NCBI RefSeq assembly: GCF_006345805.1
Contig: NC_043003.1
Coordinates: forward strand, 12,772,001-12,836,000
DNA length: 64,000 bases
Direction: 5' to 3'
From: Octopus sinensis
Lineage: Eukaryota
Part shown: positions 45,080-47,473 of the stretch, one piece after another
Numbering within the stretch: the stretch's first letter is position 1
Layout: every line of letters starts with the position of its first letter
Notes under the pieces: model-generated
The model's database searches: none
Told to the model about the DNA's origin: nothing
What the model saw: the letters and a program-made list of their open reading frames with translations, nothing else
Made by a program: the position numbers and the translations under genes

Positions 45080-47030
45080 ATATATGTGTGTGTATATATA
45101 TATGTATATGTGTATGTGTGTGTGTGTGTGTATATGTGTGTGTCTGTTTGTTCCCCCAACATCGTTTGACAACCGATGCTGGTGTGTTTACGTCACCATA
45201 ACTTAGCAGTTCGGCAAAAGAGACCAATAGAGTAAGTACTAGGCTTACAAAAGAATAAGTCCTGGGGTCGATTTACTAGACTAAAGGCGGTGCTCCAGCA
45301 TGGCCACAGTCAAATGACTGAAAAGAGTAAAAGAGTAATACTGTGACTTTAATCCAAGAGGCATAACTATGGATAAAGAAGCATGCCAATGAAGGAGTCT
45401 CTATGCAGTTACTCAATCTGCTAGAAATAGCAACTAAACCTTCCTCAATTTACACCCTAGATTTTCCATTAATAAATGGCTATGTTGGATAATGTAGCAC
45501 TCGATACCCTGTTCATCATCATCATCATCATCATTTAACATCTGTTGTTCATGCTGGAATGGGTTTGATGGTTTAACTTGGGTTGGTAAGATGAGGGGCT
45601 GCACCAGACTCCAGTCTGATTTTGCATGGTTTCTACGGCTGGATGCCCTTCCTAGCACCAACCACTCCGAGAGTGTAATGGGTACTTTTACGTGCCAGTT
45701 GCATGACACTGGTATCTGCCACAATTATGATTTCAGGACAAATGGGTTAAACAATGACAATAAATAGAGAAAAGCCAAAAGAGAATTATTGCCAGAAACG
45801 TAGTTCTAGCCTAATACTTCATCATCATCCAGTGTTTTAGATCAGGATTTTGCCCCCGTTAACGGGGATGGCTGCATCTACCTCAATGCCATAGCAACTG
45901 AGGTAGGCAGGTGCAGCCCACTCCAACCTTTTGGCTGGCTGGTGTCCATTCTACTTTGCTATCATGAGGCCTTCTGGAGTTGGATTTTCTACGGGGAGCA
46001 TGCCCTTGCTTACCCCCAATCTCAGTTTCTAGACATGAGTGGTCCTGAGACCAAGGCCTCTACCATGATTTTTAAGAAATGTGGAAAACTAGCTCAGGAA
46101 GGCAGGGATGCTACTCCCTGAGACCCCTTTCGGAGCCCCGCTACCTATAAGAAATGAGAAAGCTGTTCTGTTGATCAGATCACCTGGAACCATTATTGTA
46201 ACTGACAAAGTGCCAGTTTGAATTGACTATACTGTTGGGAAGCAAGCTTCTTTACTGTGTGTGCACAAACACTCAGTAAAGAAGCTCTGTAATGTATGTA
46301 GAATTCCCTCTCTCTCTCGGAGAGGTACAAGCACATACACACGGCAGTAACTTCTGCCTACCAAATTCAATCACAAAGCTTCGGTCGGCCTGGGGCTATA
46401 GCAGAAGAAAGACACTTGCCCAAAGTGCCACGCGGTGGGACTGAACCCGAAATTATGTGAACTAATGTCAAATATACTGCAAGGTGCTAGCAGTGTGCTT
46501 GATCTGAAGACCCATAAGTTGGTGGTCCAGTGCCATATGAACCCAACCGTTTTGCTTCTGCTACTGCTGCCACATCAGTGGTCAGTATCTAGCTATTGAG
46601 GTTGTTTTAATTAGAGTCTATTCTATGTTTTCCTCGCGGTTTCGATTCCCAGACCGGGCGTTGTGAGTGTTTATTGAGCGAAAACACCTAAAGCTCCACG
46701 AGGCTCCGGCAGGGGGTGGTGGTGATCCCTGCTGTACTCTTTCACCACAACTTTCACCACAACTTTCTCTCACTCTTACTTCCTGTTTCTGTAGTACCTG
46801 TATTTCAAAGGGCCGGCCTTGTCACTCTTCTGTGTCACGCTGAATATCCCCGAGAACTACATTAAGGGTACACGTGTCTGTGGAGTGCTCAGCCACTTAC
46901 ACGTTAATTTCACGAGCAGGCTGTTCCGTTGTTGTTTAATCCTAGATCAGATTGAAGCGATCTGTGATCAAAGACATTCCATACGACCATAATGCTTTTT
47001 GTTTCTCTGACAGTAGACTACACTGTACCA

Positions 47031-47224
47031 GACGTTCAAGAATTTGGACCTGGAGATCTCCACTTCCAGCGACTAGGGCCACCTCCCATTGGTGTCGGGC
47101 GTCAACGAAGAGCCCTCGGCTACAAGACGACCAAAGTTTTTTTTTTCCCAAGGTCTGGGGTCTCCTAAGCCCTAGACCATCACCTAATCACCCTTACCTG
47201 TCTTGTTGCTTAACAACAACAACA
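47031..47224 (+). mobile_element. ~195-bp SINE-like retroelement with HDV-like ribozyme head and (AAC)n tail, intact copy
   Basis: 11-bp TSD acactgtacca (47020-47030, 47225-47235); homologous to 29856-30457. Confidence 0.75.
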
Positions 47225-47473
47225 ACACTGTACCATGTGTTCTTCCCTTTTACAAGAAAATTTAAGGGAGACTTGGCTATTATTTCTAGCAAATTGAGCG
47301 ACCTCACATAAGATCTCACATTCAATCATTAGTTTTTTTAATTTGTTTATGGAATATTTCAAAAGAAATTATTTATATAATGCTAATATCTAATTGTGTT
47401 CTTTAGGTATGATGTGGCTTCACTACAGTTTCCTTCTAATTATAAAAATTATTTTTGATATTTTTCATTTTAG

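Follow-up and report, generated by a model that had tools for sequence, protein, structure and literature searches.

The two short repeats that lie within and upstream of MED25 in the window (the whole 64,000-nucleotide stretch of Octopus sinensis DNA analysed here) belong to a retroposon family of about 200 nt with at least 1,576 copies. Its head and its last 36 nt also occur in an Ingi-like LINE, from which the family likely arose by internal deletion. For the head we predict the fold of an HDV-like ribozyme whose P1 stem is split by two hairpins and which would have cut the source transcripts 5' of the first nucleotide, G1. Taken as a whole, we consider this account quite probable. The preliminary description of the two copies, made from the window alone, had proposed a non-autonomous retroposon headed by a ribozyme that has an HDV-like core and a putative catalytic C, and this proposal is supported by covariation and folding. 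The LINE sharing both ends that it anticipated was also found, although it is not of the R2/R4/RTE type then envisaged but Ingi-like, as indicated by its RNase H and by the 2A motif of a sister element.

The 2.72-Gb genome was scanned with exact patterns, which gave 877 matches to a 29-nt head, 844 to a 29-nt tail and 1,576 to an 18-nt tail, and none to the reversed control patterns. From the loci examined we drew 221 distinct full-length copies, with interrupted and cut copies filtered out. The short copies have their own target-site duplications and tail and contain no open reading frame, and the head is partly missing in a few of them (L118, L331 and L333). Divergence among 38 tail-anchored copies was 4.0% outside CpG and 9.6% at CpG. 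Contigs of four further organisms (B to E) carry the family nearly unchanged; they offered no covariation and, among the loose ends inspected, no LINE junction, and a pattern scan of metagenomes for the family gave no match. A core pattern with another base in the P1 3' strand was also tried, and the 30 loci read among its 64 were 29 family copies and one chance match. At four loci (L024, L141, L160 and L172) same-strand copies lie as tandems or as groups of two or three within 0.3-8 kb.

The 5' end of the family is fixed. Among 50 copies flanked by an exact, non-microsatellite duplication, 27 begin at G1, 14 fit a G1 start through 1-2 nt of microhomology, and nine carry 1-3 extra 5' nucleotides, the single additions being T in five cases out of five. 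The duplications measure 11-14 bp in 41 of the 50 copies, with a mode of 12, and duplications of 12 bp are reported for the ingi clade (PMC3820030). The bases ahead of G1 are mostly CAG/CAA repeats, and the first letters of the element are GCCGTTC in 114 of 183 full-length copies. It had been predicted that full-length copies begin with GCCYGAC and that 5' ends pile up there; the pile-up exists, but at G1 of GCCGTTC. Both window insertions, whose own duplications and (AAC)n tails were confirmed at their coordinates, begin at this same family 5' end and are not 5'-clipped, contrary to the earlier view that they start 3-4 nt downstream of a predicted cleavage site.

Neither a tRNA nor a strict A or B box was found in the element, as had been noted for the two window copies, and an internal T run is present, features that do not match a tRNA-derived Pol III SINE. 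Pol III would terminate at this T run, and we favor transcription by Pol II. An intact copy would be read by Pol II, self-cleavage at G1 would leave an uncapped RNA, and the LINE protein would bind the shared 3' end and use the (AAC)n tail for priming at CAG/CAA-rich sites.

The family consensus presents the helices in the double-pseudoknot order P1, P2, P3, P1.1. P2 consists of six pairs, a bulged A and one further pair, P4 is absent, and P1.1 is a single pair in the consensus, as it had been in the window copies. The earlier assignments of P2, P3, L3, the P1 3' strand and J4/2 with its putative catalytic C (T in copy B), and the absence of P4, were likewise confirmed. A contiguous P1 of 6-7 bp is absent at the predicted cleavage site, and seven pairs form only across an insert of 36 nt: the P1 3' strand calls for GCCCGAC, which the family supplies in two parts, GCC (nt 1-3) and CGAC (nt 40-43). 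The seven letters predicted for the P1 5' strand were right, but the strand is present in full and split by the insert rather than lost upstream, and the hairpin ctgga/tccag, formerly placed in J1/2, is actually one of two hairpins inside P1. These two hairpins are predicted to abut each other and both half-stems with zero free bases, and in our model the insert falls between pairs 3 and 4 of P1 (GCC/CGAC) and forms a four-way junction with it. Folded without constraints, nt 1-76 of a near-consensus copy gave P1a, H1, H2 and P1b at -26.2 kcal/mol, and nt 1-100 gave H1, H2, P2 and P3, which is the other nested half of the pseudoknot.

The bases of the core are well kept. Among 114 copies unselected for them, G1 is present in 108, the equivalents of U20 and G25 in L3 in 105 and 106, respectively, and the catalytic C and the A of J4/2 in 97 and 112, with the whole core intact in 23. 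The lack of the usual G in L3, formerly listed as a caveat, is thus a lesion of the window copies. The insert hairpins show only one change, which is one-sided; one pair of H1 is U-G in 190 and C-G in 19 of the 221 full-length copies. Dinucleotide shuffles of the near-consensus head contained the core in 111 of 60,000 cases, and the core together with a 7-bp P1 from nt 1 and one insertion of any size and place in 3 of 60,000; the descriptor was written after the fold was seen, and the freedom of insert size and place was allowed for. Two abutting hairpins occurred in 110 of 100,000 shuffles of the insert.

It is scarcely credible that the fold is a chance property of an ordinary SINE or coding fragment. 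Such an origin would agree with the lack of any Rfam ribozyme model matching the window, three intact copies or one sister head, with the fold energy of copy A alone, which is no better than that of its shuffles (z 0.08), and with the head being readable as open in several frames and having one loose B-box-like hexamer at nt 4. It is opposed by the 3 in 60,000 shuffles, by the T run in an element with neither tRNA nor strict boxes, and by a full-length Ingi-like LINE headed by the same core with compensatory changes; this sister family has already largely refuted it. On these comparisons of sequences the predicted HDV-like fold is well supported. Two published observations count against it. 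Mismatches in P1 are described as uncommon and tied to loss of cleavage (PMC3774820), and a 1-nt J1/2 gives little cleavage in drz-Agam-2-1 (PMC4908430), so that the top of P2 would have to fray in this family.

The main support for the split P1 comes from the sister Ingi-like family, whose heads hold a 1-nt bulge at the insert site and compensatory changes in P1b and P2. The sister was found through an RNase H search, which led to Ingi-like LINEs. Its element on contig C9 is full length though interrupted, with a target duplication and an (AAC)n tail, and encodes an N-terminal 2A motif, PHD fingers, AP endonuclease, RT, RNase H and a C-terminal zinc finger. An RTE-like LINE is inserted within this full-length element. 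The sister heads compared (L310, L311, L314 and L317) have a core like that of the element, with P3 and L3 nearly identical. They also have a small P4, and their P1 5' strand is one base longer, at the site where the element has its 36-nt insert. P2 differs between the element and the sister heads by three two-sided changes, with 98.5% of cells paired; the covariation score was reached in 0 of 500 shuffles and the two-sided pair count in 118 of 500. P1b shows one two-sided change, read by hand because the alignment slipped there. The covariation check of P1, P2 and P3 suggested in the preliminary description thus yields four events across two lineages only, and single sister heads do carry mismatches (L311 at P1 pair 2). 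From this covariation and the folding together we infer the double pseudoknot and the split P1.

A ribozyme with another P1, formed either as a slipped 7-bp stem from nt 1-7 or as the 4-bp P1b alone with cleavage near nt 37, is very unlikely. The lowest-energy fold of copy A does pair nt 1-7 three bases downstream, but the slipped stem requires the rare change C2A, leaves a gap after P3 and abolishes P1.1. A 4-nt P1 is known in one R2 ribozyme (PMC3774820); cleavage near nt 37, however, disagrees with the observed 5' ends, and the sister family fits the split register only.

The parent LINE was found by a protein search with the RNase H region of the sister. Its RNase H and 3' end, the sole parts known, are 34-57% identical to those of the sister. 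Of 23 distinct parent fragments examined, 18 show the last 36 nt of the element directly after the stop codon. All are 5'-truncated, reaching up to about 1.2 kb, and the 2-9 kb inspected on their upstream side contained no full-length parent. Inverted head pieces stand at the 5' end of eight of the 23, six of them long (L359, L362, L363, L368, L369 and L394) and two of 8-10 nt (L374 and L380), and at L359 a unique duplication encloses the whole structure of inverted head and LINE. Because C30A occurs in four of the six long inverted heads and in none of 68 short copies, these heads come from the LINE, which has the insert as well. The run-off point of the six is G1 in three cases, nt 3 in two and nt 28 in one. 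Head nt 1-110 is in this way joined, inverted, to parent LINE bodies; nt 1-110 and the last 36 nt of the element are traced, and nt 111-167 lack a traced source. Since the LINE carries the same head and the same last 36 nt, we regard the element as a derivative of the NARTc/RIME type that likely arose by internal deletion. In the portion available of one source, such derivatives are reported only for RTE, Ingi, Vingi and R2 elements (PMC5786205). Patterns anchored in the short copies did not lead to the parent. With tail-anchored patterns, a head lay within about 220 nt at 27 of 30 loci in one set and at 26 of 30 in another that overlaps it, the remaining loci being interrupted or cut. All 60 head-anchored regions contained short copies, and two long head-to-tail spacings turned out to be separate copies.

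Given the same origin, the 5' end could instead be set by an internal Pol II promoter in the head, the ribozyme being vestigial and perhaps killed by the 36-nt insert. We judge this unlikely, though it has a precedent in Pr77, an internal promoter with its start at +1 (PMC3383444). A short derivative of the sister family, about 250-300 nt long and also internally deleted (L312, L313, L316, L318, L320 and L323), lacks both G1 and the putative catalytic C and still begins within a few nucleotides of the same place; this dead derivative is, however, rare (6 loci among 14 matches). The window copies, too, begin at G1 despite carrying C2A and the change of G to T in L3, but these shared lesions may stem from gene conversion. 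Defects at P1 pairs 3-4, the place of the junction in our model, are poorly tolerated by HDV substrates, and we count this for a promoter; against it, the consensus holds all core bases and pairs, the insert is fully paired, and four compensatory changes separate the element from the sister family. An extra 5' G is the signature of a cap, and G was added at the 5' junction in none of the five single additions, a small sample. Self-cleavage at G1 is the reading we retain, although a promoter of the Pr77 type may act alongside the ribozyme or in its place, and the earlier term 'promoter-less' is unsupported.

Both window copies are probably inactive as ribozymes, judging from their lesions, and would be dead passengers (Table 1). 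Copy A carries C2A, a 3-nt loss in J1/2-P2 and the G-to-T change in L3; in copy B, C2A and the L3 change are accompanied by loss of the catalytic C. The preliminary description had taken copy B to be inactive; copy A is probably equally dead. In a cellular HDV ribozyme the change G25A sharply cuts cleavage (PMC13635239); the window copies have U at the equivalent position. The two copies are separate insertions, as had been stated, but they are not independent samples, since C2A, the L3 change and a short ACA variant are common to both. C2A gave nine exact genome matches including both window copies, versus 877 for nearly the same head pattern, and the L3 change is found in 1 of 221 full-length copies, plus the interrupted copy B. 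A C2A subfamily was considered and rejected, the L3 change being common only to the window pair among the nine matches. Copies A and B share descent, either through gene conversion or through a common damaged source, between which we do not rank. The stretches 29857-29918 and 47031-47089, 17 kb apart, share two rare changes and are candidates for gene conversion or local retrotransposition. MED25 was assigned through Med25_VWA matches on four exons, exons 2 and 3 being read from translations, which confirms the placement of copy A in sense in intron 4, between exons 4 and 5; copy B sits upstream of the gene. Copy A is probably inert for MED25. Elsewhere in the window, an uninterrupted frame of 751 codons (23749-26004, plus strand) matches Fritz/WDPCP and is unusual as one exon.

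Table 1. Positions of the two window copies, their parts and the related sister element (window coordinates unless a locus or contig is named).
Feature	Position	Strand	Remark
Copy A, full length, degenerate non-autonomous element	47031-47224	+	
Copy A 5' target-site duplication, 11 bp	47020-47030	+	same letters at 47225-47235
Copy A 3' target-site duplication	47225-47235	+	
Copy A P1a 5' strand	47031-47033	+	begins with G1, the family 5' end, where cleavage is predicted; 47032 carries the C2A lesion
Copy A insert hairpin H1, 6 bp	47034-47049	+	arm 1 of predicted four-way junction
Copy A insert hairpin H2, 6-8 bp	47050-47069	+	arm 2 of predicted four-way junction
Copy A P1b 5' strand, 4 bp	47070-47073	+	one pair G-C; A-U in sister family
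Copy A J1/2 and P2 5' strand	47074-47080	+	3 nt of family sequence missing
Copy A P3 and L3	47081-47093	+	G25-equivalent to T at 47089
Copy A P1 3' strand (47094-47100) and G of single P1.1 pair (47101)	47094-47101	+	
Copy A J4/2, one extra pair, bulged A, P2 3' strand	47106-47117	+	putative catalytic C47106; P4 absent
Copy A end-to-end complementary motif, 5' half	47122-47129	+	
Copy A internal T run	47137-47146	+	inverted heads of parent LINE begin just ahead of such a run
Copy A parent Ingi-like LINE 3' UTR and (AAC)n tail	47186-47224	+	
Copy A end-to-end complementary motif, 3' half	47199-47206	+	
Copy B	29856-30457	+	G1 at 29857, after one additional T; T at 29935 in place of the catalytic C
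Copy B target-site duplications	29843-29855 / 30458-30470		
Antisense repeat nested in copy B	29955-30346		own 6-bp duplication
MED25 intron 4, host of copy A	44866-47474 (approximate limits)	+	same strand as copy A
Sister element	L310 1504-1580; G000:C9, about 3603747-3611700; L276, L263		HDV-like head, P4, 1-nt P1 bulge

The ends of the element are complementary to each other. The 10 nt just after P2 can pair with the 10 nt just ahead of the tail, and in the sister 13-15 nt of other sequence are complementary at the same two places. The duplex energies are -15.8 kcal/mol for the element and -26 to -30 kcal/mol for the sister, compared with -7 to -8 kcal/mol for crossed pairs. All eight inverted heads of the parent begin at nt 108-112, which is the 3' edge of the motif, ahead of the T run. 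Two of 12 sister loci (L345 and L346) hold an inversion starting at the same motif, L402 is inverted elsewhere, and a short false start lies at the same place in L359 and L346. The paired ends may hold the 5' UTR at the insertion site, where the second target strand would prime and copy as far as the RNA 5' end. Twin priming of L1 likewise inverts the 5' part within one insertion, but its inversion points are scattered, whereas the eight head inversions here all start within the same few nucleotides. Our literature search found no paper on Ingi elements with twin priming, and the portions available of the literature on L1Tc and NARTc contain no mention of end-to-end complementarity. Tentatively, and with somewhat less than even confidence, we propose the two features as a pair: an active HDV-like ribozyme, missed by searches for a contiguous P1, whose substrate stem runs across a perfect four-way junction, and an Ingi RNA that closes into a 5'-3' panhandle fixing second-strand priming, so that the second strand would have a programmed start in place of random twin priming.

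Ribozyme-headed LINE derivatives are already known as NARTc, RIME and the R2 SIDEs (PMC3414825, PMC4035085, PMC6765202). Like the trypanosome pairs NARTc/L1Tc and RIME/ingi and the ribozyme L1TcRz, the element has the LINE 5' end and about the last 30 nt, with a ribozyme starting at +1; NARTc and L1Tc have 77 and 30 terminal nt in common, the NARTc ribozyme cuts at +1, and Pr77 of both is promoter and ribozyme at once (PMC3383444). A single-pair P1.1 is reported for L1TcRz (PMC3185411), which also has the 3-bp P3, and the ingi/L1Tc side has the 12-bp duplications. The L1Tc primers show the same order after J4/2, with one base, one spare base and an 8-nt P2 strand, and L1Tc and ingi resemble the sister element in being LINEs with 2A, AP endonuclease, RT and RNase H. 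In contrast to NARTc and L1TcRz, the host here is an animal, P1 is split by the 36-nt two-hairpin insert, P4 is absent and the first pair is G1-C; the tail is (AAC)n instead of poly(A), and the ribozyme is known from sequence only. The R2 SIDEs of Drosophila are also internally deleted LINE derivatives with a 5' HDV-like ribozyme and the LINE 3' end, but they are rare, and R2 is site-specific in rDNA, whereas the present family is dispersed, Ingi-like and present in over 1,500 copies (PMC3414825).

As regards the fold itself, drz-Agam-2-1 and other large HDV-like ribozymes similarly have a structured peripheral domain adjoining P1; the P1.2 domain of drz-Agam-2-1, however, lies in J1/2 after a complete P1 (PMC4908430), unlike the present insert, which is placed within the 5' strand of P1, between its third and fourth pairs. 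The P4-less ribozymes of silkmoth R2 and abalone also replace P4 by few nucleotides, but their P1 is contiguous (PMC3774820). In the portions of these sources available to us, extra domains are placed in J1/2 or P4. Neither a domain inside P1 nor such a family in this animal group was found in the literature searched, which did not extend to Repbase, Dfam or supplements; ribozymes of animal Ingi elements may already appear in Ruminski 2011 and Kojima 2011. If cleavage is true, the HDV fold is widened, with a new place for domain grafts, and descriptor searches undercount such ribozymes. The covarying end-to-end pairing and the fixed inversion start would provide a direct handle on the second-strand start in AP-endonuclease LINEs. 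Vingi, a sister clade, is being used to insert genes from a donor that carries both UTRs (PMC13708176), and further background is given in PMC4758252.

Other elements were encountered in these searches. In a third Ingi-like family, which is older (L220-L231), the stop codon is followed by an (AAC)n tail; this family showed no clear match to the element, and its 5' end was not found at these loci. The RNase H search also returned a degenerate LTR-retrotransposon-like pol fragment with RT, RNase H and integrase (L224). L269, which like other young families lies on small contigs and may be another organism's, holds on its minus strand (about 2710-6070 of the reversed locus, G000:C9489) a Vingi-like LINE with a 2A motif, a 12-bp duplication and an (AAC)n tail. 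No RNase H was seen in its translation, and its head is canonical HDV-like, with a contiguous 7-bp P1.
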